This document shows, piece by piece, positions 2,092 through 13,413 of a stretch of 40,469 nt of DNA. Both the position numbers and the translations under genes were made by a program. Under the pieces are notes generated by a model. The model searched no databases. It saw only the letters and a list, made by a program, of their open reading frames with translations, and had not been told where the DNA came from. The DNA is from a bacterium. GTDB taxonomy: Bacteria; CLD3; SB21. Each line of letters opens with the position of its first letter. Positions within the stretch are counted from its first letter, which is position 1. The stretch is taken from positions 1 to 40,469 of the forward strand of contig JABWCP010000006.1 of NCBI GenBank assembly GCA_013360215.1. Reading direction: 5' to 3'.

Positions 2092-2107
2092 ACCAATGTA
2101 TCACATA

Positions 2108-2272
2108 TTTCGGAAGAGGAGCGTCTACAAAAAAATTCATTGCGAGTGCATCCGGCACGCTAGAGCAGTGAATGGCGGTGATAGACGCCGAAACAACGGA
2201 TCTGGAAAATCGGTTGTTGGTTGCGGAGGTTAAACCCACGTGACTGTCATGATGCATGAAGCGCTTCCGGAA
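2108..2272 (+). ncRNA. Lysine riboswitch (L-box) aptamer
   Basis: P1 TTTCGGAAG (2108-2116)/CTTCCGGAA (2264-2272); AGAGGAGCG junction; P2 GCGTCTA/TAGACGC followed by CGAA; P2a ATTCATTGC/GCAGTGAAT; P3 AACAAC/GTTGTT; L2 TCCGG complementary to L3 CTGGA (kissing loops); P4 GGTTGCG/CGTGACT; ACTGTC; P5 TCATG/CATGA; AGCGCT. Lies directly upstream of lysC. Confidence 0.93.
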
Positions 2273-2339
2273 TTGACGTCGCGATCTGCATTAAGGCCTT
2301 CCTTAAGCTCAATCCCGTACAATTCCCGTATCATGACTC

Positions 2340-2370
2340 TTCCTTACCGTTTGTAAGGAATTTTTTATTT
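2340..2370 (+). terminator. Riboswitch expression-platform terminator (attenuator)
   Basis: TTCCTTAC-CGTTT-GTAAGGAA followed by TTTTTTATTT, 20 nt before the lysC start. Confidence 0.75.
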
Positions 2371-2390: not shown

Positions 2391-3773
2391 ATGAACGATC
2401 TCATTATCGCCAAATTTGGCGGTACCAGTATGGGCACAGCCGAAGCGATGCGCCAAAGCGCGCGTATCGTTATTGCCGATAACCGCATACGTGTCGTCGT
2501 GGTGAGCGCCACATCCGGTACGACGAACGCGCTGCTCAAAGTATATCACGATCTATGCGCATGCGACACGGTGTCGGCGGATCAGGCGTTTAAAAAAATT
2601 GAAGACCGGCATCGCACGATGTGCCATGCACTGGAACTTGATTCTTCTGCAGTAGATGAATTGATCGTTGCCGCACAAAATCACATGTCGTTATTTTCTG
2701 CATCGGAAAATCGCGAAGTATGGCTCGATGCATGGCTTTCATTCGGTGAGCGCTTGGCCTCGCGTATATTTGGCAAAATGCTCTTTCATCTCAAAAATAA
2801 TGTCACGGAAGCCGATGCCCGATCATTTATTATTACCGATGAGGTGTTTGGCAAAGCCGAGCCGCAACCGGATCGTATAAAAACTGCGTGCCTGAAAAAA
2901 TTGCTCCCACTGTGCAGTGAACAGATTATTGTGACCCAAGGTTTTATCGGTGCAACGACCGACGGCCGTACGACCACACTGGGGCGCGGCGGTAGCGATT
3001 ATAGCGCGGCATTATTGGGAGAGGCGCTCTCGGCTAAAGAAGTTTTGATTTGGACGGACGTACCGGGGATTTTTACGATGGATCCCAATTTGGTGCCGGC
3101 TGCGCAAACTATTCCTAAAATCAGTTTTTCGGAAGCCGCTGAATTGGCCAATTTTGGCGCTAAAGTTTTACATCCGGCAACGCTGTGGCCCGCTATTCGC
3201 AAAGGCATTCATGTGTTTGTGGGTTCGACATTTGAACCCGAAGCCGGCGGAACGTGGATCGAACCGGATGTCAATGATAAGCCGTTGGTACGTGCCATCG
3301 CGATGCGCAAGCATCAGACGCTTATAACGGTGAGCAGTTTGCGCATGCTCAATACGCACGGTTTTCTTGCCAAAATGTTCGGCGTGCTGGCCGATCATAA
3401 ACTCAGCGTTGATCTTGTGACGACCAGCGAAGTCAGCGTGGCGCTTACGATAGACGGCACGAGCCTGGGTTCGTCCGGTGAAAAAATTTCCGAAAAACAA
3501 GAGTTGCTCCAGGATCTTCGCCGGTTTGCGGATGTCGCGATCGAGGAAAACCTGACGCTGATCGCACTGGTCGGAAACAATCTGCAACAAACACCCGGTA
3601 TTGCGGCGCGCACCTTTGACGCGATCGCCGGTCTTAATGTGCGTTTGATTTGTCAGGGTGCGAGTTCTTATAACATGTGCTTTCTGATGCATCAGTCGGA
3701 TGCGCCACAAGCCGTTAGCGCACTTCACCGTGCGTTTATCGAAAGTGAGGTCGTATGCCTAAAATCAGCCTGA
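2391..3773 (+). CDS. lysC: Aspartate kinase, lysine-sensitive (AKIII-like, two ACT domains)
   Basis: KFGGTS, TTTLGRGGSDYSAA, WTDVPG, ELANFGAKVLHP, SVDLVTTSEVSVALT, LICQGASSYN; downstream of the lysine riboswitch. Confidence 0.96.
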   Translation: MNDLIIAKFGGTSMGTAEAMRQSARIVIADNRIRVVVVSATSGTTNALLKVYHDLCACDTVSADQAFKKIEDRHRTMCHALELDSSAVDELIVAAQNHMSLFSASENREVWLDAWLSFGERLASRIFGKMLFHLKNNVTEADARSFIITDEVFGKAEPQPDRIKTACLKKLLPLCSEQIIVTQGFIGATTDGRTTTLGRGGSDYSAALLGEALSAKEVLIWTDVPGIFTMDPNLVPAAQTIPKISFSEAAELANFGAKVLHPATLWPAIRKGIHVFVGSTFEPEAGGTWIEPDVNDKPLVRAIAMRKHQTLITVSSLRMLNTHGFLAKMFGVLADHKLSVDLVTTSEVSVALTIDGTSLGSSGEKISEKQELLQDLRRFADVAIEENLTLIALVGNNLQQTPGIAARTFDAIAGLNVRLICQGASSYNMCFLMHQSDAPQAVSALHRAFIESEVVCLKSA

Positions 3774-4453: not shown

Positions 4454-5344
4454 ATGAAAAATCTGCAATCGGTTACACTATGGACAGCGATCGTGACGCC
4501 GTTTTTGGATAACGGAAAAATTGATTTTTTATCCTTTGAACGGTTATTACGTCGTCAAGAAGCCGCCGGAAACGGTGTGGTGATACTCGGAAGTACGGGC
4601 GAGGGCCTGGCGTTAAACGATGATGAAAAAAGGGAAGTGGTCCGCTTCACCGGAACTTGCAAACTCCATGTCCCGGTTATGGTCGGCGTCGGCGGATTCA
4701 ATTTGGACGCCACCCAGCGGTGGATTGAAGAGAATAATCAGCACGCATTTATCCATGCGTATTTATTGGTCACGCCGCTCTACGCGAAACCCGGTGCACG
4801 GGGCCAATGTAGTTGGTTTGCTGCGCTGCTCGAGGCCTCTCAAAAACCGTGTATGTTATACAATGTGCCATCCCGGACAGGCGTGAAGTTGCATACGTCC
4901 GTCCTGCGTGAACTTAAGGATCATTCGCGATTTTGGGCAGTGAAAGAGGCGAGCGGGAGCGTTACCGAATTTCAGGATTACCGTGAAGCCGCACCGGGTG
5001 TTGCATTCTTTAGCGGGGACGACGGCTTAACACCTTTTTTTGCATCGGCCGGAGCCATGGGGCTGGTCTCTGTGATGAGCAATGTGTGGCCGGAAGCGTC
5101 CGCCGAATTTGTTTACCGTTGTGTGAACCGCGATACCGGCGTATTATTACCGACATGGCGTACGGCTTCCGATGCGATGTTTTTGGCCAGTAATCCTGTA
5201 CCGGCTAAAGCTTTATTGCACGAATTAGGGTTGATCACTTCGGCGTATGTGCGACCGCCGCTTTCTATGGAAGATTTACCGGATCGAAATAAATTAATCA
5301 TGGCGGACAGTCTAGTGCAACGATGGATGGAGCAATACGGATGA
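4454..5344 (+). CDS. dapA: 4-hydroxy-tetrahydrodipicolinate synthase
   Basis: TAIVTPF, GSTGE, LYNVPSRTG, Schiff-base Lys in AVKEASG, SGDD, NPVPAK. Confidence 0.95.
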   Translation: MKNLQSVTLWTAIVTPFLDNGKIDFLSFERLLRRQEAAGNGVVILGSTGEGLALNDDEKREVVRFTGTCKLHVPVMVGVGGFNLDATQRWIEENNQHAFIHAYLLVTPLYAKPGARGQCSWFAALLEASQKPCMLYNVPSRTGVKLHTSVLRELKDHSRFWAVKEASGSVTEFQDYREAAPGVAFFSGDDGLTPFFASAGAMGLVSVMSNVWPEASAEFVYRCVNRDTGVLLPTWRTASDAMFLASNPVPAKALLHELGLITSAYVRPPLSMEDLPDRNKLIMADSLVQRWMEQYG

Positions 5345-6105
5345 AAAACGATTGGAAAAAAATATTAGAACAACTGGAGCGCGGAGAGATACGGGCCGCG
5401 ACGTATGATAACGGTTTTTGGCGGGCTAATGTTGCCGTCAAAGAAGCCATACTATCCGCTTTTCGCGAAGGTAAACTGATCGCCATGAATCGTCCCACCT
5501 ACGGACGCTATGGCGGATTTGTGGATAAAGATTCGATGATTCCCCGAAGCTTTCAGCCGAAACAAAAAATAAGACTCGTGCCCGGCGGTTCATCCGTACG
5601 ACGCGGCGCTTATGTGGCACCCGGTGTTGTGATTATGCCGCCGTCGTATATCAATGTCGGCGCATATATAGACGAACAAACGATGGTGGACAGTCATGTG
5701 TTGGTCGGTTCGTGTGCGCAGGTCGGAAAACGTGTACATCTGAGTGCCGGTGTACAAATCGGCGGCGTATTGGAGCCGGTCGGCAGCGCTCCCGTGGTGA
5801 TCGAAGACGATGCCTTTGTGGGTGCGGACGCGGTGATCGTAGAGGGTATATGTGTCGGTACCGGAGCCGTGATCGCACCCGGTGTGGTCCTTTCGCGCGG
5901 TGTCACGGTGTACGACGCCGTACATGAAAAAGAATTGGGACGTGGCGCCAGAATTCCCGATTTGGCCGTCGTCGTACCCGGTACGCGCCCGCTGGCATCG
6001 ACCTGGGCCAAAGAACGCGGTCTCGCAACGGCTTGTGCGATCATCGTCAAATACCGCGATGCGAAAAGCAACGCCGCGTTACAACTGGAAGAGGCGTTGC
6101 GATGA
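5341..6105 (+). CDS. dapD: Tetrahydrodipicolinate N-succinyltransferase
   Basis: VKEAILSAFR, RLVPGGSSVRRGAYV, MPPSYINVGAYID, VGSCAQVG..VHLSAGVQIGGVLEP hexapeptide repeats. Start set at ATG 5341 from the ATGA overlap with the dapA stop. Confidence 0.95.
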   Translation: MKNDWKKILEQLERGEIRAATYDNGFWRANVAVKEAILSAFREGKLIAMNRPTYGRYGGFVDKDSMIPRSFQPKQKIRLVPGGSSVRRGAYVAPGVVIMPPSYINVGAYIDEQTMVDSHVLVGSCAQVGKRVHLSAGVQIGGVLEPVGSAPVVIEDDAFVGADAVIVEGICVGTGAVIAPGVVLSRGVTVYDAVHEKELGRGARIPDLAVVVPGTRPLASTWAKERGLATACAIIVKYRDAKSNAALQLEEALR

Positions 6106-7307
6106 AGGCATTGACGGCGCATCACCTTACACTGTTACAAGAGGCCGCCGACCGGGTGCGAAAACCTTTTTTTGCCTACGATCTGGATGGTTTACGATCG
6201 CATGCTATGACGTTACGCTCGGAAGGCGTTCGCCTGTGGTACGCTTGTAAAGCCAATCCGCTTTCGGCCATTCTGCGAACAATGGGTGCGTGTTCTTTTT
6301 CGGCGGACGCCGCCAGCCTCGGCGAATTACGGCAAATCCTAAGATATTCGGGCATCGCACCAAAAAACATATTACTTACCGGCCCGGCTAAAGACGAAGC
6401 CTTCGTCACGGAAGCGTTAAATGCCGGCGTTTGTACGATCATCGTAGAGAGCGTGCACCAACTTGAAATGCTGCAGCAGCTTGCATCAACGACCCACAAG
6501 CCTATTCAGGTTCTTCTTCGCCTTCAATTAGACTGGGACGAAAAGAGCGCGAGCGTGCTTGGAGGCAGCGCCATCACCCCGTTTGGATTACCGCCAGAGG
6601 TTTGGCAATCGGTGTCGTGGAAATCGTTTCCTCATTGCAATGTGTTAGGTTGTCATGTTTTCCAATGGAGCAATATTGGCGACATAGAAAAACTCAATTT
6701 TTTTTGGCATCGTATTGCCGTCGAATCTAAGCGCTTGATGCAACATATCGGCAAACCTTTGGAGGTGCTTGACCTTGGGGGTGGACTCGGCGTACCGTAT
6801 CATGCCGATGCGCGCGAATTGCGATGGATTGAAGTGGATGACGCGTTGCAAAAAATTCGCAAGCAATATGAAATACCTTCGATTTGGTTAGAACTCGGAC
6901 GTTATGCCGTAGGCGGTTTCGGAAATTATCTTACACGTGTGATGGATCGTAAGCAGGTACGCGGCACGGAGCTTCTGATTTTAGAAGGCGGTGTCAATCA
7001 CATCGCCCGTCCGGCCCTCACGCATGCCTCGTTTCCTGTACACACTCTGAAGCCTTCGTCTGCGAAAACCCAATCTTTCAAACTGCACGGCCCCTTATGT
7101 ACGGCCTTGGATGATCTGGGTTTGCATGATTTGCCTGAAGATATACAACGCGGCGATTGGCTTGTGTTTCGCCAATGCGGTGCATACGGCTTTACGGAAA
7201 GTATGCCGTACTTTTTGTGCCACGATATTCCTGCAGAGATCATTATAGAAAACAATCAATACGCCGTGGTGCGCGAAAGCGTGCCGGCTGAAAATTGGCT
7301 GAAGTAA
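6102..7307 (+). CDS. lysA: Fold-type III PLP-dependent decarboxylase, LysA-like with divergent active site
   Basis: YACKAN PLP lysine, DLGGGLG, ELGR, GPLCTALD, GAYGF. Start set at ATG 6102 from the ATGA overlap with the dapD stop. The lysA assignment rests on operon context. Confidence 0.8.
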   Translation: MKALTAHHLTLLQEAADRVRKPFFAYDLDGLRSHAMTLRSEGVRLWYACKANPLSAILRTMGACSFSADAASLGELRQILRYSGIAPKNILLTGPAKDEAFVTEALNAGVCTIIVESVHQLEMLQQLASTTHKPIQVLLRLQLDWDEKSASVLGGSAITPFGLPPEVWQSVSWKSFPHCNVLGCHVFQWSNIGDIEKLNFFWHRIAVESKRLMQHIGKPLEVLDLGGGLGVPYHADARELRWIEVDDALQKIRKQYEIPSIWLELGRYAVGGFGNYLTRVMDRKQVRGTELLILEGGVNHIARPALTHASFPVHTLKPSSAKTQSFKLHGPLCTALDDLGLHDLPEDIQRGDWLVFRQCGAYGFTESMPYFLCHDIPAEIIIENNQYAVVRESVPAENWLK

Positions 7308-7308
7308 A

Positions 7309-8415
7309 ATGAAAAACTATACGCACACCACGATACCGGTACGGACTTTGGCATCAGGTCAAATTCTGAATATAGATGTCTTTCGTTTTGAAGGTGATCC
7401 GTCTGTGCCGTCGGCATATATACAATCCGGCATGCACGGTGCGGAATTACAAGGTACCGCCGTGATTGATTTTTTAATTCGTTTTTTTACAGATCACCCG
7501 CCCAAAGGCACGGTGACACTTGTCCCGGCGGCCAACCCTTATGCACTAAATAATAAAACCGGAGAATATACGCAGGGAAGATTTGATCCGACGTATGGCG
7601 ATAATTGGAATCGCCTTTATTGGGATGCTTTGAATAATGAAGACGGCATAGACATAGAAAACTTGGTTAAAACCATTCGCAGCGATGCACAAAATAGTAT
7701 TCAAAAAATTTTACGACATGAGCTGACCCGTAAACTGGAACAGCAACTGCAGAAGCCGCTTACGGAAATGGGTTATGGCCGCAAACTGGCGTTGACTTTA
7801 CAACGTATGGCTGTCGAGGCGGATAGTGTGCTTGACCTTCATTGCGCTTCGCATTCGGTACGCCATGTGTATGCGCCGGAGTATGCGCGTCAAACCGTGA
7901 GGTATTTGAATATTCCGTATGTTTTATTTATTCCCAATCTTTTTGCCGGTGCAATGGATGAAGCGGTATTTTGCCCTTGGTGGACATTAAGTCAAAAGCT
8001 AAGTGTGCCGTGCCCCGTTGAAGCCTATACGATCGAACTCGGCAATCAGGAAGCTTACTCCGCAAAAGATGCGCGCGGCGATGCGATGGGTATTATTAAT
8101 TATTTAGTGCACAGGGGAACATGCGACCCGATAAAACCAAAAGGCCGTGATAGCGCGGAGTCCCTATTCGCATGCCGTTTACAAGACTATAAAACTATCT
8201 ATAGCCCGACCGGAGGATTGTGTGAATTTAGTACGGTTACCGGTGGGATCGTTCCGGCACAGGAGCCGCTGGCGGTTATACTCACTAAAGCGGGGAATGA
8301 AAAAATATCGGTGGCATTACCCTATGATTGTATTCCGATCGTGCAATATTCATCCGCGGCTTTGCATCAAGGGGTCGAATTGCTCAAAGTATTTTCGAAA
8401 TGGGAAGTAATGTGA
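7309..8415 (+). CDS. Succinylglutamate desuccinylase/aspartoacylase (AstE/AspA, M14-type Zn hydrolase) family protein
   Basis: HGAE (HxxE), NWNR, LDLH, TIELG catalytic Glu, and a C-terminal biotinyl/lipoyl-like hairpin region. Starts 1 nt after the lysA stop. Confidence 0.88.
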   Translation: MKNYTHTTIPVRTLASGQILNIDVFRFEGDPSVPSAYIQSGMHGAELQGTAVIDFLIRFFTDHPPKGTVTLVPAANPYALNNKTGEYTQGRFDPTYGDNWNRLYWDALNNEDGIDIENLVKTIRSDAQNSIQKILRHELTRKLEQQLQKPLTEMGYGRKLALTLQRMAVEADSVLDLHCASHSVRHVYAPEYARQTVRYLNIPYVLFIPNLFAGAMDEAVFCPWWTLSQKLSVPCPVEAYTIELGNQEAYSAKDARGDAMGIINYLVHRGTCDPIKPKGRDSAESLFACRLQDYKTIYSPTGGLCEFSTVTGGIVPAQEPLAVILTKAGNEKISVALPYDCIPIVQYSSAALHQGVELLKVFSKWEVM

Positions 8416-8429
8416 ATTCGGGCAACAAT

Positions 8430-8483
8430 AAAAATCCCTCATGAAACAAGGATGATTGGCATGCCTTGATACCGATGAGGGAT
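8430..8483 (-). terminator. Terminator hairpin between the convergent lysine operon and rny
   Basis: ATCCCTCAT (8434-8442)/ATGAGGGAT (8475-8483) with inner CAAGG/CCTTG; followed by a T run on the minus strand. Confidence 0.65.
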
Positions 8484-8509
8484 ATAATCTTTTAAATTGT
8501 CAGAGAATA

Positions 8510-10072
8510 CTATTTTGCAATATCCACGGCACGGTATTCGCGAATCACCGTGATTTTGATCTGTCCGGGATATTCCATTTCGGTTTCGATACGTTGTGCG
8601 ATATCGTCGGCCGTTTGAATAGCGCGGTTATCGTCGAGTGTCGCATAATCAACCATCACACGTATTTCCCGCCCGGCCTGAACGACAAACGCTTCGCGTA
8701 CGCCGTTGAAGCTCATCGCAATTTGTTCCAATTTATTGAGGCGCTTCAGATAATTATTCAGCACTTCTTTTTGTGCGCCCGGACGTTCTTTGCTCAGCAT
8801 ATTCGCCGTGTACAAAATCACGTTGATAGGGTGGGCGATCATCGGGTCGTCATGATGAAATAAAATGGCATTTTGAACGACGGCGTTTTCACCGAATTTA
8901 CGTGCCAATTCGGCGCCCACGACGGCATGCGGTTGATCGGAGCGGTCGGCGGCAAATCCGATATCATGCAGTATCGCAGCGCGTTTGGCAAGTTGTGCGT
9001 CAAAACCTAATTCGGATGCGATCATACCGGCAATGGCGGCCGTTTCCATACTATGTTGCAGGAGATTCTGTCCGTACTGATGACGGTATTTGAGTTTGCC
9101 GAGCAGTTTGACTATTTCGACATGGGCGCCGTGTATACCGACTTCAAAAAGCGCCTGTTCTCCGGTATTCATGATATGTTCATCGAAATCCCGTCTGGCT
9201 TTTTCGTACACATCTTCGATACGACCCGGATGAATACGTCCGTCCGTGATCAGTGCTTCCAACGTTTTTCGTGCGATTTCACGACGGATCGGATCAAATC
9301 CCGAAATCATGATCGTATTGGGCGTATCGTCAATCATGATCTCGCAACCCGTAATGGATTCGAAGGCACGGATATTACGCCCTTCACGCCCGATGATACG
9401 GCCTTTCATTTCATTACTCGGCAGTTTAAATGCAGTAACCGTGCTTTCAGTCACGTGATGCATGGCCGTACGTTGTACGGCTTGCAACATGATATTTTTG
9501 ATCTGATCTTTGGCCTGTATTTGCGCTTGTTCTTTGATATTGCGAATGGATTTGGCCGCATCTTCTTTGGCCTTTTCCAGCATATTGGCCATCAGCACCT
9601 GTTTGGCCTCTTCCGTCGTCATGCGTGCGATGGTTTCCAGTTTATCGTTCTGGTTTTTGATCATCGCTTCAAGTTGTTCGGTTTTTTTGGTGACTTCTTG
9701 AAGTTTTGTCTGCACTTGTTGTTGTTTCTGATCGACGTCTTTTTCTTTACGCGTCAGCAAATCTCCTTTTTGCTCTACGGCACGTTCGCGCTTGAGTAAT
9801 TCATCTTGCTGGTTTTTGATCTGAATGCGCGTGCTTTTGGTTTGCTCGTCAAACTCATGGCGTTTTTTATACCATTCATCGCTGACTTCGATGAGCTTTT
9901 CTTTTTTGAGATTTTCCGCATCGGACTGGGCCGTTTTGCGAATTTGCTGGGCTTCTTCATCGGCTTCGCGAATGCGTTTGGCTACGGCGATTTTAGTCGC
10001 GTACACTTGCCCAAAAAGAAAGGCCGCTACGGCGGATACCAGCGCTGCTAAAATAAAAATAGCAATTTCCAT
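8510..10072 (-). CDS. rny: Ribonuclease Y (HD domain degenerate at one metal ligand)
   Basis: N-terminal TM helix, coiled coil, KH motif MKGRIIGREGRNIR, DGRIHPGRIE, YGQNLLQHS, LHDIG, QAGREIRV, YPGQIKITVIRE. Confidence 0.96.
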   Translation of the reverse strand: MEIAIFILAALVSAVAAFLFGQVYATKIAVAKRIREADEEAQQIRKTAQSDAENLKKEKLIEVSDEWYKKRHEFDEQTKSTRIQIKNQQDELLKRERAVEQKGDLLTRKEKDVDQKQQQVQTKLQEVTKKTEQLEAMIKNQNDKLETIARMTTEEAKQVLMANMLEKAKEDAAKSIRNIKEQAQIQAKDQIKNIMLQAVQRTAMHHVTESTVTAFKLPSNEMKGRIIGREGRNIRAFESITGCEIMIDDTPNTIMISGFDPIRREIARKTLEALITDGRIHPGRIEDVYEKARRDFDEHIMNTGEQALFEVGIHGAHVEIVKLLGKLKYRHQYGQNLLQHSMETAAIAGMIASELGFDAQLAKRAAILHDIGFAADRSDQPHAVVGAELARKFGENAVVQNAILFHHDDPMIAHPINVILYTANMLSKERPGAQKEVLNNYLKRLNKLEQIAMSFNGVREAFVVQAGREIRVMVDYATLDDNRAIQTADDIAQRIETEMEYPGQIKITVIREYRAVDIAK

Positions 10073-10102
10073 GATTGTCTTGATCTAACTCCGTTGATCT
10101 AT

Positions 10103-10150
10103 AAAAAAACCCTGTGACCTTCGGGCGCTGTGCGCCAAAGGACAACAGGG
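10103..10150 (-). terminator. Bulged hairpin plus U7 between zapA and rny
   Basis: Minus strand reads CCCTGT-TGT-CCTT-T-GGCGC-ACA-GCGCC-CG-AAGG-TC-ACAGGG-TTTTTTT. Confidence 0.7.
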
Positions 10151-10169
10151 GATAATGTCAGAGTGAAGA

Positions 10170-10529
10170 CTATTTCTGCGAAAAAAGATTGATTTCTTCG
10201 GCAGCCGATTGTTCGTTAGCCTCAGGTGTCAGGTCCAGCGTTTCGGGCAGGGGGGCCTGCGTCAGCATGTCCAGCATTTTCTGAGCCTTGTTTTCCATCG
10301 TTTCAATCGTCTTCGTTTGATCGGCGCTGGTTTTGAAAAACTCGTCCGTAATATTCAGCGCCGCAAGGATCGCCACTTTGAGCGGGGATTTGATCGCACC
10401 GCTTTTGTTGATCTCTTTCATCTTTTGGTCTACATAATCGGCAATTGCGCGAATGTGATCGGCGTTATCATCGCCTTTGATCACATATTCGCTGCCGTAG
10501 ATGTTGACTTTGACGGAACTCTTATCCAC
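10170..10529 (-). CDS. zapA: Cell division protein ZapA
   Basis: VKVNIYGSEY, IADYVDQKMKEI, KVAILAALNITDE; GTG start; canonical pheT-zapA-rny synteny. Confidence 0.93.
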   Translation of the reverse strand: MDKSSVKVNIYGSEYVIKGDDNADHIRAIADYVDQKMKEINKSGAIKSPLKVAILAALNITDEFFKTSADQTKTIETMENKAQKMLDMLTQAPLPETLDLTPEANEQSAAEEINLFSQK

Positions 10530-10542
10530 TGTTATCGCAAAA

Positions 10543-10989
10543 TTAAATAATTTTTTCCAACTCGTTTATTTTATTCAAAACACTTTCTAATTGCACCCGC
10601 ATGCGCGTTCTGAATTCGGGATCCAGCATCGCTTTAGGTTCAGAACGTATTTCCACGGTCTGTGCCGGGGACTCACTGCCGCGTTTTAGTTCATCGGCCT
10701 CACGGCGAAGGGCGTTATACGCATCCTGCAATTCCTGATACGCCGCATCTTTGGTCTTGATCAGGTTTTGTTGCCGCCGGACGATTTTTTCTTTGTCGTC
10801 GAGTTCACGCTGTTTTTCGGCAACGGCTTCCGTCACCTGATGGTCCGCTTGCTGCGTGATCTCCTGCAAACGTCCGATCTCCGCATACGCATCATGCAGA
10901 TCCTGTAGCAATTTTTTTAACCGGATTTCCACCAAATCAAGGGAGCCGGCACTGCGTGTACGTGAATGTTTTTCGGATGCTCGCGCCAA
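10543..10989 (-). CDS. Coiled-coil protein at the ZapB-like position
   Basis: Heptad-rich sequence ending MRVQLESVLNKINELEKII, between pheT and zapA. TTG start is uncertain. Confidence 0.7.
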   Translation of the reverse strand: MARASEKHSRTRSAGSLDLVEIRLKKLLQDLHDAYAEIGRLQEITQQADHQVTEAVAEKQRELDDKEKIVRRQQNLIKTKDAAYQELQDAYNALRREADELKRGSESPAQTVEIRSEPKAMLDPEFRTRMRVQLESVLNKINELEKII

Positions 10990-11004
10990 TTTTGTTATTA
11001 CCTG

Positions 11005-13413
11005 TTATCGCAGTTTTGCGCCAAATTGATTTTCGACATACGCGATGATGGATTGCATCGTCGCATCGATCTCATCCTCCGTCAGAGTACGTTCGACGGA
11101 TTCGAATCGCAACGCAAACGCGAGGCTTTTTTGACCTTGTGTTACCTGATTGCCGTGATACACATCAAATACTTCCAAGTTGGTCAAATGCGCACCGGCC
11201 TTGGACCGTATGGCATTCTGTATCACGCCGGCCTGCATTTTTTCATCCACGATCAAGGCCAAGTCGCGGCGAATAAATGGAAATCTGGAAATCAGATCAA
11301 ATGTTTTTCTGAATTTTCCGATACGTCGTAAAACATCGTAATCTATTTCGAAAGCCCAAACGGTCGTGTCAATATCCAATGCCCGTAAGACCGCATTCTG
11401 TATACGTCCAAAGCGACCAAGTGTTAATACCTGAGAATCCGAAGCAAGACAGGATATGGAAACCGAATTGGGCGCAAATACGAAAGAATGATAAGGATTA
11501 TACTGTAGCGAATCAAGCCAAAACTTCCCCATAATCCGATCGACAATGCCCTTAAGATCATAATAATCTACGGCACGGGGTTTGGTTGCCCAGTGGGTAG
11601 GGGCGCTTTGGCCGACGATACAACCGGCCAATACGTTACGTTCCGCCGGCAGTGGATCGCCCTCGTTGCGGTACGTCCGCCCGATTTCATAGATCTGCAT
11701 GCTGTCGTTTTTACGAAATAGATTACCGCGTACGACTTCCAGCAAACTCGGCAGCATGGAAATGCGCATGACGGACATGTCTTCGCTGATGGGGTTCATC
11801 AGGCGCACAAAATACTTTTCACCCTCCGGTTCGACGGCCATCTGCGATGACGGATGTACCATGGCATTGGTATATACTTCCGATAAACCGGCTTCACGTA
11901 AAGCGGCGCGGGTTTGGTGCATCATTTTTTCGCCGGAAGGCGGTTCGTGATGATAGTGTCCGTAGGCGCCGGTACTGGGACGGATGCGATCAAAACCGTA
12001 AATGCGGGCCACTTCATCAATCAGATTTTCCTCGATTTCGATATCTACGCGATGCGATGGCGCGGTGACGATAAATGAACCGTCGCCGTTATTGATGACG
12101 CCAAAGCCAAGGCGCGTAAGAATATCCGCGATATCGTTGTCGGGGATTTCTTGACCGATAAGGCGCGTAACCGATGCCGAGCGCAATGTGATCACCGCCG
12201 GTTTGGTTATTGAAAAGTTAACATCCAATACACCGGCGAGAATTTCGCCCCCGGCCAGTTCATGCATCAGTTGTGCGGCGCGCTGGATGGCGTAGATCAC
12301 GCCTTCGGGGTTGATGCCCCGGCCAAAACGATTGGATGCTTCCGACATGATGCCGAGATGTTTGGATGAGCGGCGAATTCGTTTTCCGTCAAAATGGGCC
12401 GATTCGAGGAGAACATTTTTGGTCGAATCCGAAATTTCCGAATTTTTTCCGCCCATGATACCGCCGATAGCGATCATTTTTTCGCCGTCGCAGATCATCA
12501 CTGTTTCATCATTGAGTGTGTGCGACTTATCATCCAGCGTTTGAAACGTATCGCCTTTGCGGGATTTACGCACGATGATTTTGTGGCCGGCCAGATGATC
12601 GTAGTCGAAAGCGTGCAGCGGTTGGCCGCATTCCAGCATGACAAAATTGGTAATGTCCACGATGTTGTTGATCGAACGAATACCTACGGCTTCGAGTCGT
12701 TTGACCAGCCAATCCGGCGAGGGGCCGATCGTGACGTTGCGTATGACGCGGCCGGCATAGCGTGTGCAGCCTTCGCGATCTTCGATAGCGATAGACGCAT
12801 GCGCTTCGGCTTTTTCCGAGGATTCGATGACACGCACGTCGGGCATACGGATGGTCGTATTTTCGATCATGGCGATCTCGCGTGCCATGCCGAGCATATG
12901 GAGGCAATCGGGACGATTGCTGGTCACATCAATATCCAGTACGACTTCGCCGCTTCCGATAAACGCAGCAAACGATTGACCTAAGGTATGCGGCGTTGTA
13001 GAATCAAGTTCCCAAATGCCGGGCGACTTGCCGGTTTCAAATCCCAATTCGCTTTTGGAGCAAATCATACCGCAGGATTCTTCGCCGCGAATTTTTGCTT
13101 TTTTGATTTCAAAATTTCCCGGCATCATCGTGCCGATCGTAGCGATGGGGGCCAATTGGCCGGCTTTGACGTTGGGCGCTCCGCAGACGATGTTCAGTAT
13201 GTCCGTGCCGACATCTACCTTGGTGAGAGACAGTTTATCGGCATTGGGATGCTTGGTTACTTCGAGCACTTTACCGAGGACCACACCTTTGAAAGGATCA
13301 TTTTCCAAAATGGCTTCGACATTAAGTCCATTCATCGTAAGACGATGGGCCAGCTCTTGCGGGGACAACTTGATATCAACATAATCCTTGATCCAAGTCA
13401 GGGAAATCTTCAT
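11005..13413 (-). CDS. pheT: Phenylalanine--tRNA ligase beta subunit
   Basis: MKISLTWI, HPNADKL, VCGAPNV, DVTSNRPD, INNIVDITNFVMLECGQPLHAFD, RRDLA, KSLAF FDX-ACB domain. Confidence 0.99.
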   Translation of the reverse strand: MKISLTWIKDYVDIKLSPQELAHRLTMNGLNVEAILENDPFKGVVLGKVLEVTKHPNADKLSLTKVDVGTDILNIVCGAPNVKAGQLAPIATIGTMMPGNFEIKKAKIRGEESCGMICSKSELGFETGKSPGIWELDSTTPHTLGQSFAAFIGSGEVVLDIDVTSNRPDCLHMLGMAREIAMIENTTIRMPDVRVIESSEKAEAHASIAIEDREGCTRYAGRVIRNVTIGPSPDWLVKRLEAVGIRSINNIVDITNFVMLECGQPLHAFDYDHLAGHKIIVRKSRKGDTFQTLDDKSHTLNDETVMICDGEKMIAIGGIMGGKNSEISDSTKNVLLESAHFDGKRIRRSSKHLGIMSEASNRFGRGINPEGVIYAIQRAAQLMHELAGGEILAGVLDVNFSITKPAVITLRSASVTRLIGQEIPDNDIADILTRLGFGVINNGDGSFIVTAPSHRVDIEIEENLIDEVARIYGFDRIRPSTGAYGHYHHEPPSGEKMMHQTRAALREAGLSEVYTNAMVHPSSQMAVEPEGEKYFVRLMNPISEDMSVMRISMLPSLLEVVRGNLFRKNDSMQIYEIGRTYRNEGDPLPAERNVLAGCIVGQSAPTHWATKPRAVDYYDLKGIVDRIMGKFWLDSLQYNPYHSFVFAPNSVSISCLASDSQVLTLGRFGRIQNAVLRALDIDTTVWAFEIDYDVLRRIGKFRKTFDLISRFPFIRRDLALIVDEKMQAGVIQNAIRSKAGAHLTNLEVFDVYHGNQVTQGQKSLAFALRFESVERTLTEDEIDATMQSIIAYVENQFGAKLR

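Follow-up and report, generated by a model that had tools for sequence, protein, structure and literature searches.

A candidate lysine route through N2-succinyl-lysine encoded behind a lysine riboswitch in a bacterium of the CLD3 lineage

The stretch of DNA analyzed here (the window; 40,469 nucleotides, positions 1 to 40,469 of contig JABWCP010000006.1, assembly GCA_013360215.1, from a bacterium of the GTDB lineage CLD3; SB21) carries six plus-strand genes in the order lysC-dapB-dapA-dapD-lysA*-hydrolase behind a lysine riboswitch, where lysA* stands for a divergent relative of lysA and the hydrolase for the zinc enzyme whose gene closes the operon. We propose that N-succinyl-LL-diaminopimelate (N-succinyl-LL-DAP) may be decarboxylated by LysA* to N2-succinyl-lysine, from which the hydrolase would then free lysine, a reading that we regard as evenly poised between right and wrong. 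LysC, DapA, DapB, and DapD would, judged by their family scores, make N-succinyl-2-amino-6-oxopimelate, which an aminotransferase unlinked to the operon could convert to N-succinyl-LL-DAP. LysA* would take the carboxyl group off the free-amine end to yield N2-succinyl-L-lysine, and the hydrolase would cut the succinyl amide to release L-lysine and succinate. The succinyl group would be kept to the end, and DapE, DapF, meso-DAP, and canonical LysA would be bypassed. With slightly less confidence, we suggest that such a “succinyl-lysine shunt” could be the sole lysine route in two genera of the phylum and a widespread riboswitch-controlled add-on in marine Gammaproteobacteria.

The hydrolase gene is an intact open reading frame of 368 codons with an ATG start. 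Its product matches the Pfam family PF24827 (AstE_AspA_cat; 77.3 bits, E 1.4e-21, cut-off 25), which places it in the AstE/AspA superfamily, and it is the sole PF24827 protein encoded in the host genome. An earlier interpretation of the window from its letters and open reading frames (the sequence-only reading) had assigned the protein to the AstE/aspartoacylase family; this holds for the superfamily but not for AstE proper, as the AstE equivalog TIGR03242 (cut-off 305.65 bits) gave no match at E ≤ 0.01 and the sole NCBIfam match was to DoeB with 14.9 bits. The zinc and catalytic motifs that it had described as intact are all four present in the translation (H43-G-A-E46, N101-R102, D176-L-H178, and I242-E243-L-G), and H43, E46, N101, R102, D176, H178, and E243 are invariant in the 83 members of the clade. 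The absence of a signal peptide, also claimed there, is in agreement with first 30 residues that, judged by eye, contain no hydrophobic core. Leaving aside one copy at 99% identity in a metagenome-assembled genome, the nearest proteins are 35–47% identical to the hydrolase. Its structural-genomics orthologs 3LWU (269 bits) and 3FMC (264 bits) are solved but uncharacterized Shewanella proteins. A quick tree groups the window protein with the homolog of locus L107 (support 86), on long branches that make this placement unreliable. The Pfam scan found no PF01546 domain in the hydrolase, which is thus not a member of the M20 family of DapE and could be only a functional analog of that enzyme. Judged by its sequence, it is a zinc amidohydrolase of the cytoplasm and belongs to the same branch of the AstE/AspA superfamily as the beta-Asp-Arg/Lys dipeptidase CphZ.

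This relationship allowed the residues of the hydrolase to be mapped onto those published for AbCphZ (PMC9974463), with conservation counted in the 83 clade members. H43, E46, H178, and E243 align to AbCphZ H50, E53, H179, and E251, respectively. Like these four residues, the clamp for the alpha-carboxylate (R91/N101/R102; CphZ R102/N112/R113) and the acidic pocket for the Arg/Lys side chain (D217/E218; CphZ D222/E223) are conserved in all 83 sequences. K360, present in 80 of them, probably corresponds to CphZ K366, going by a count of positions beyond the aligned stretch. CphZ D181, one of two residues contacting the aspartyl part of the substrate, is replaced by A180, and the clade has Gly at this position in 80 members, Ala in two, and Asp in one. 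The conservation survey of the clade revealed no further invariant basic residue that could bind the second carboxylate of DAP. Such a pocket would suit an N2-acyl-lysine with an acyl group that bears a carboxylate and lacks an amine, as succinyl does; N2-succinyl-lysine is beta-Asp-Lys minus one amino group. Of the two substrates named in the sequence-only reading, succinyl-DAP and succinyl-lysine, the evidence leans toward the latter.

The same pocket could also belong to a CphZ-type salvage enzyme, which would free lysine from beta-Asp-Lys, a cyanophycin dipeptide, or from other N-alpha-acyl-lysines and be part of lysine regulons as a lysine supplier. Based on their structures, Sharon et al. 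(2023) suggested that the orthologs 3FMC and 3LWU are likely CphZs (PMC9974463), and the residues of the Arg/Lys pocket and those that bind the carboxylate have been retained. Salvage would moreover account for riboswitch-lysC-hydrolase pairs in genomes without lysA*, fits the lysC-linked clade described below, and is in line with those metagenome loci in which the hydrolase has no lysine linkage (18 of 80). We nevertheless consider this function improbable: the equivalent of CphZ D181 is absent from 82 of the 83 clade members, AbCphZ matches the hydrolase with just 75 bits, no cyanophycinase reached its cut-off in any of the family's 15 genomes (a search that did not extend to cyanophycin synthetase), and the tight dapD-lysA*-hydrolase cassette would be left unexplained.

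The second half of the proposed ending concerns the decarboxylase. The best match of LysA* in the PDB is BtrK (137.9 bits), and its best match to a DAP decarboxylase reaches 127.4 bits. In the DAP decarboxylase of T. maritima, the distal carboxylate of the substrate is bound by R249 and R285 and the distal amine by E315; an E315T exchange abolishes most of the activity with DAP, and 2-aminopimelate, which has no distal amine, becomes the preferred substrate (PMC8277567). R290 and R326 of LysA* correspond to the two arginines by a residue offset of 41. The E-x-G-R motif is found in 47 of 48 other LysA* sequences, the remaining one being a fragment that ends before it, and the R-P motif in all 48. 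The position of E315 is occupied by Thr357 according to residue offsets and to HMMER alignments with the Aquifex and H. pylori enzymes, in which the Cys-Thr of LysA* is Cys-Glu, and all 49 LysA* sequences possess this threonine. In addition, LysA* has His and Thr where the N-D-x-x-R-P-x-x-Y motif has Asp and Tyr; canonical Shewanella LysA has kept Glu and Tyr at the sites in question. The retention of both arginines together with the exchange of Glu for Thr predicts a substrate with a distal carboxylate but without a free distal ammonium group. N-succinyl-DAP, the product of the neighboring DapD after transamination, is predicted to match this description. Taken together with the gene order, the two active sites point to one route that would end with LysA* followed by the hydrolase.

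A different division of labor is conceivable, in which the hydrolase would be a DapE analog that desuccinylates N-succinyl-LL-DAP to LL-DAP, and LysA* would act on LL-DAP, or on meso-DAP formed by an unrecognized epimerase; in Gammaproteobacteria, the cassette would then consist of lysine-regulated isozymes. This would be the simplest substitute for the missing M20 DapE. It would account for genomes that have the hydrolase only, in which its gene comes after a riboswitch and lysC and N-succinyl-LL-DAP is an ordinary intermediate, and it agrees with the retention of a canonical LysA (>535 bits) in all five cassette genomes tested. There is also a precedent for non-orthologous replacement of DapE in Bacteroidota, where an M20-type amidohydrolase (Echvi_1427) complements E. 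coli dapE9 (GapMind 2026, PMC13759103, which also reports DapF2). Several observations are difficult to reconcile with such a role, however. LysA* does not have the Glu, Asp, and Tyr around the distal amine, and the E315T exchange in the T. maritima enzyme cripples its use of DAP; the hydrolase pocket is doubly acidic (D217/E218) and has no conserved basic residue for the distal carboxylate; lysA* and the hydrolase occur together in 22 of 24 gammaproteobacterial genomes, a partnership of which an isozyme would have no need in the presence of DapE; and neither DapF, nor a spare racemase of the DapF2 type, nor Ddh was found in the host genome. On balance, we therefore regard the DapE analog as a serious but rather unlikely alternative to a hydrolase acting on N2-succinyl-lysine.

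The gene neighborhoods of homologs elsewhere link the hydrolase to lysine synthesis. Among the best 80 of 439 hydrolase relatives in metagenomes, 47 are located immediately downstream of lysA*, in the layout dapA-dapD-lysA*-hydrolase (37 loci), dapD-lysA*-hydrolase (4), or lysC-dapA-dapD-lysA*-hydrolase (1), or in loci cut by a contig end (5). Eight further loci have lysC upstream of the hydrolase, 18 have no lysine gene nearby (nine of these being near-copies of one lineage), and seven offer too little upstream sequence. Hence, 55 of the 73 loci with enough upstream sequence have dapD/lysA-like or lysC neighbors; beyond the cassette, the flanking genes are housekeeping genes with no relation to it. 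Rfam confirmed riboswitches in four of the metagenome loci; of four cassette loci tested in this way, three were confirmed. An nhmmer profile seeded from Rfam-confirmed sites matched in 33 of the 34 cassette loci whose upstream sequence exceeds 350 nucleotides, in all six lysC-type loci for which upstream sequence exists, and in none of the 18 unlinked loci. A similar association was seen in 401 genomes of the Shewanella order, of which 66 encode the hydrolase and 24 encode lysA*; the two genes are adjacent in 22 of these 24, and one of the exceptions is due to a contig end. Within the small phylum of the host, the two genes likewise go together: among 20 representative genomes, those of the host and of G005 alone encode the hydrolase, and these two alone have the LysA* type, with 47% identity between their LysA* proteins and about 33% to LysA from the remaining genomes. 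In G005, the six genes form an operon like that of the window.

In a second type of arrangement, seen in genomes that have no lysA*, a lysine riboswitch is followed by lysC and then directly by the hydrolase (L019 6176–9101; L052, L056, L065, L080, L084, L091, L119, and L120). These lysC-linked hydrolases form one clade on the quick tree with a Shimodaira–Hasegawa-like approximate likelihood ratio test (SH-aLRT) support of 99, and their position 182 is Lys instead of the Ile or Val of the cassette members, a difference that hints at another acyl-group preference in this clade. The linkage recurs in lineages far apart and takes two forms, each of them preceded by a lysine riboswitch, which speaks against the hydrolase being a passenger gene that is unrelated to lysine and was merely carried along with the operon. 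The 18 unlinked loci, which have neither lysine neighbors nor a riboswitch match, are what such a passenger would lead one to expect, yet we deem this explanation very improbable.

The lysine genes of the host genome (G000; 100% complete, 56 contigs) leave few alternatives to the operon. DapF was not found with PF01678 or TIGR00652 even at E ≤ 1, a negative that is not absolute because the PF01678 control detected DapF in 9 of 14 known genomes. No Ddh was found in this genome, and DapL, DapE, and LysA had no match above their cut-offs. The eight best matches to M20 and related PF01546 families are a dipeptidase, PepD, PepT, and M28-like aminopeptidases; no classical DapE and no counterpart of the M20-type enzyme of the Bacteroidota is evident among them. 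Alanine-racemase homologs are limited to one copy, plus a YggS-like protein, which leaves no candidate for a spare epimerase of the DapF2 type. According to a local tblastn search of the genome, dapB, dapA, dapD, lysA*, and the hydrolase gene are each single-copy and all inside the operon. With the whole DAP branch present once and in a lysine-repressed operon, lysine would stop all DAP synthesis, which implies that DAP may not be needed for its own sake. A further aspartokinase, with 35% identity to the lysC product, is encoded on contig C28. The same contig holds the probable former site of a native lysA. In sister genomes, the order of genes is a 213-residue protein, LysA, DUF3467, and Amidohydro_2 (L041 of G008; L028–L037); in the host genome (C28:268208–269925), the genes for the 213-residue protein, DUF3467, and Amidohydro_2 (83% identical) are present, and the lysA slot is empty, leaving a gap of 52 nucleotides. 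This suggests that the whole six-gene operon replaced native genes; loss of the native lysA seems to have followed the arrival of the operon.

Several observations weigh against the proposed ending through N2-succinyl-lysine. The first group comes from the phylum itself. No riboswitch was detectable at the operon of G005. DapF (PF01678) and DapE above cut-off are missing from all 15 genomes of the family, so that their absence does not track the hydrolase, which is present in just one of the 14 sister genomes. All ten complete native LysA homologs of the sister genomes have Thr at the E315 position, and the one that was scored against TIGR01048 (from G008) passes the cut-off; the Thr-type decarboxylase therefore does not strictly require the hydrolase. 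Two explanations remain for the sister genomes: they may perform the same chemistry with another desuccinylase, or their Thr-type enzymes may be able to use free DAP.

A second group comes from the Gammaproteobacteria and from enzymology. In the sample of 401 genomes, 44 of the 66 hydrolase-bearing genomes have no lysA*, and in a Shewanella genome a homolog with 41% identity directly follows lysC behind a lysine riboswitch (90.6 bits), in the presence of a canonical DapE (561 bits) and of canonical LysA as the only LysA. The hydrolase must accordingly have a role independent of LysA* in such organisms. Conversely, G159 contains dapD-lysA* (L128, C6, 6893–8929) followed by unrelated genes and without an adjacent hydrolase of the clade. 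AbCphZ is reported not to cleave N2-succinyl-Arg (PMC9974463). Finally, LysA* would be required to act on an L-center, whereas DAP decarboxylases use the D-center.

Some further features of these genomes deserve mention. G159 encodes elsewhere a genuine AstE and a DoeB-like paralog next to a RimK-type ligase. In the family formed by the host and the sister genomes G001–G014, DapD was found in 13 of 15 genomes, whereas DapF and DapE had no match. Amidohydro_2 (PF04909), encoded two genes downstream of the native LysA of the sisters, was considered as their desuccinylase and not adopted, because it is 80–89% conserved and persists in the host genome although the native lysA is gone there; moreover, we take the PF04909 family to consist mostly of enzymes that are not amide hydrolases. 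In at least eight sister genomes, the gene for a YggS-like pyridoxal 5′-phosphate (PLP) protein is found about 5–9 kb away from dapD, which stands alone there; this may represent conserved synteny or a functional link.

The features of the operon are compiled in Table 1. Its six genes overlap or are 1–3 nucleotides apart, and the hydrolase starts one nucleotide past the decarboxylase stop, as noted in the sequence-only reading (TAA 7305–7307, A 7308, ATG 7309). The hairpin between the riboswitch aptamer and lysC is likely the expression platform of the riboswitch and may act as an attenuator. The riboswitch, this attenuator-like hairpin, and the close packing of the genes support lysine control at the level of sequence. 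Parts of lysC, dapB, dapA, dapD, and lysA* are represented in contigs of three RNA libraries (X18; X19 and X20); the hydrolase gene and its junction with lysA* are covered solely in run X15, which is probably DNA. The listed start of lysA* is a TTG that creates a 73-nucleotide overlap with dapD. The true start is likely the ATG at 6102, which is preceded by GGAAGAGG and overlaps the dapD stop as ATGA, in agreement with matches from other genomes that run into stop codons when extended into the first seven residues. The dapB-like protein has a GxGxxG motif at its N-terminus, and its N-terminal domain is matched only in part; it is the sole dapB-like copy in the host genome, its counterpart in G005 has 220 residues, and the gammaproteobacterial cassettes contain no dapB. 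The hydrolase gene is the last of the operon, as had been claimed, and converges on rny (8510–10072, minus strand). The terminator said to follow it is less certain: the hairpin in the intergenic region (−24.4 kcal/mol, z −2.81; equaled by one of 200 shuffles) precedes a T-rich run, but it was not listed by the consensus terminator scan and its loop is large and branched. Housekeeping genes flank the operon, with recA and ssb upstream (373–1922) and rny and pheT downstream on the opposite strand (8510–13413). A strong terminator-like hairpin is located after ssb (1948–1974).

Table 1. Coordinates of the operon features in the window and the evidence for each.
Feature	Position	Strand	Evidence
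Lysine riboswitch aptamer	2106–2274	+	Rfam RF00168, 77.2 bits (gathering score 30), E 1.3e-18, full model 1–182
Terminator-like hairpin and T run	2340–2360	+	Consensus scan: 8-pair stem, then TTTTTTATTT
lysC, lysine-sensitive aspartokinase	2391–3773	+	NF006570, 562.6 bits (cut-off 455)
Short dapB-like reductase, 231 residues	3755–4450	+	PF05173, 75 bits; TIGR00036, 97 bits, below cut-off 122
dapA	4454–5344	+	TIGR00674, 242 bits (cut-off 206); sole close copy in genome
dapD, tetrahydrodipicolinate N-succinyltransferase	5323–6105	+	NF008808, 278.7 bits (cut-off 204), succinyl type; single copy
lysA*, divergent fold-III PLP decarboxylase	6033–7307	+	TIGR01048, 199.1 bits, below cut-off 297.9
Hydrolase, CphZ-like zinc hydrolase of the AstE/AspA superfamily	7309–8415	+	PF24827, motifs, structural orthologs
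Hairpin, possible bidirectional terminator between hydrolase and rny	8429–8494		Fold of 8413–8512

Lysine synthesis via DAP is textbook metabolism, and DapE, DapF, and LysA have been studied as antibiotic targets. The idea of the sequence-only reading that the hydrolase is a biosynthetic desuccinylase with a fold different from that of DapE is favored by the comparative and active-site evidence given above. A full-text literature search, with supplements outside its scope, retrieved no paper assigning a desuccinylase function to the hydrolase family. If the proposed route exists, it would be a new pathway variant in which the succinyl group is held until after decarboxylation, and it would explain dapE, dapF, and lysA steps that appear to be “missing” in genome-based predictions of auxotrophy. 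In Gammaproteobacteria, the add-on cassette dapA-dapD-lysA*-hydrolase could raise lysine output and leave the meso-DAP pool for the cell wall untouched. The family of 3FMC and 3LWU would gain a function, which would revise the published guess of a cyanophycin dipeptidase, and “LysA” annotations with Thr in place of the Glu for the distal amine would be flagged as perhaps not being DAP decarboxylases.

Operons of this kind have been listed before. Mukherjee et al. (2017; PMC5584792, Table 1) reported a riboswitch-associated operon dapA-dapD-lysA-hypothetical1-hypothetical2 in Pseudoalteromonas and lysC-dapB-dapA-dapD-lysA in Bacteriovorax marinus; in that paper, the extra genes are left as hypothetical without comment and lysA is taken as ordinary. 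The former layout equals the cassette of the 37 metagenome loci, provided that hypothetical1 is the hydrolase, which we infer, and the latter order is the same as in the window. Among characterized enzymes, CphZ/AotO (AbCphZ, PDB 8EIN/8EIP) shares with the hydrolase the fold, the superfamily branch, the zinc triad, the catalytic Glu, the clamp, and the D-E pocket, but differs by its low similarity score, by D181, which is Gly or Ala in the hydrolase clade, and by its context, as the hydrolase has lysine biosynthesis genes as neighbors and not those for cyanophycin or aot genes. AstE (TIGR03242) belongs to the same superfamily and hydrolyzes N2-succinyl amino acids, but no AST genes are found near the hydrolase; the genuine AstE of G159 (351.8 bits to TIGR03242) is 20% identical to it and has no acidic pair in the columns of D217/E218, in an alignment that is uncertain at this identity. 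With DapE, the hydrolase would share the removal of a succinyl group in the succinylase branch of lysine synthesis, although the fold is unrelated and the substrate proposed here occurs one step later, after decarboxylation. LysA* resembles LysA and BtrK as a fold-III PLP decarboxylase with the PLP lysine, the GGG loop, the EPGR-type Arg, and the R-P Arg; it differs from LysA by its score below the TIGR01048 cut-off and by the Thr in place of the Glu for the distal amine. This Thr it has in common with BtrK (PDB 7RU7/2J66), which, according to the molecule name given by the depositors, decarboxylates L-glutamate tethered via its distal carboxyl group.

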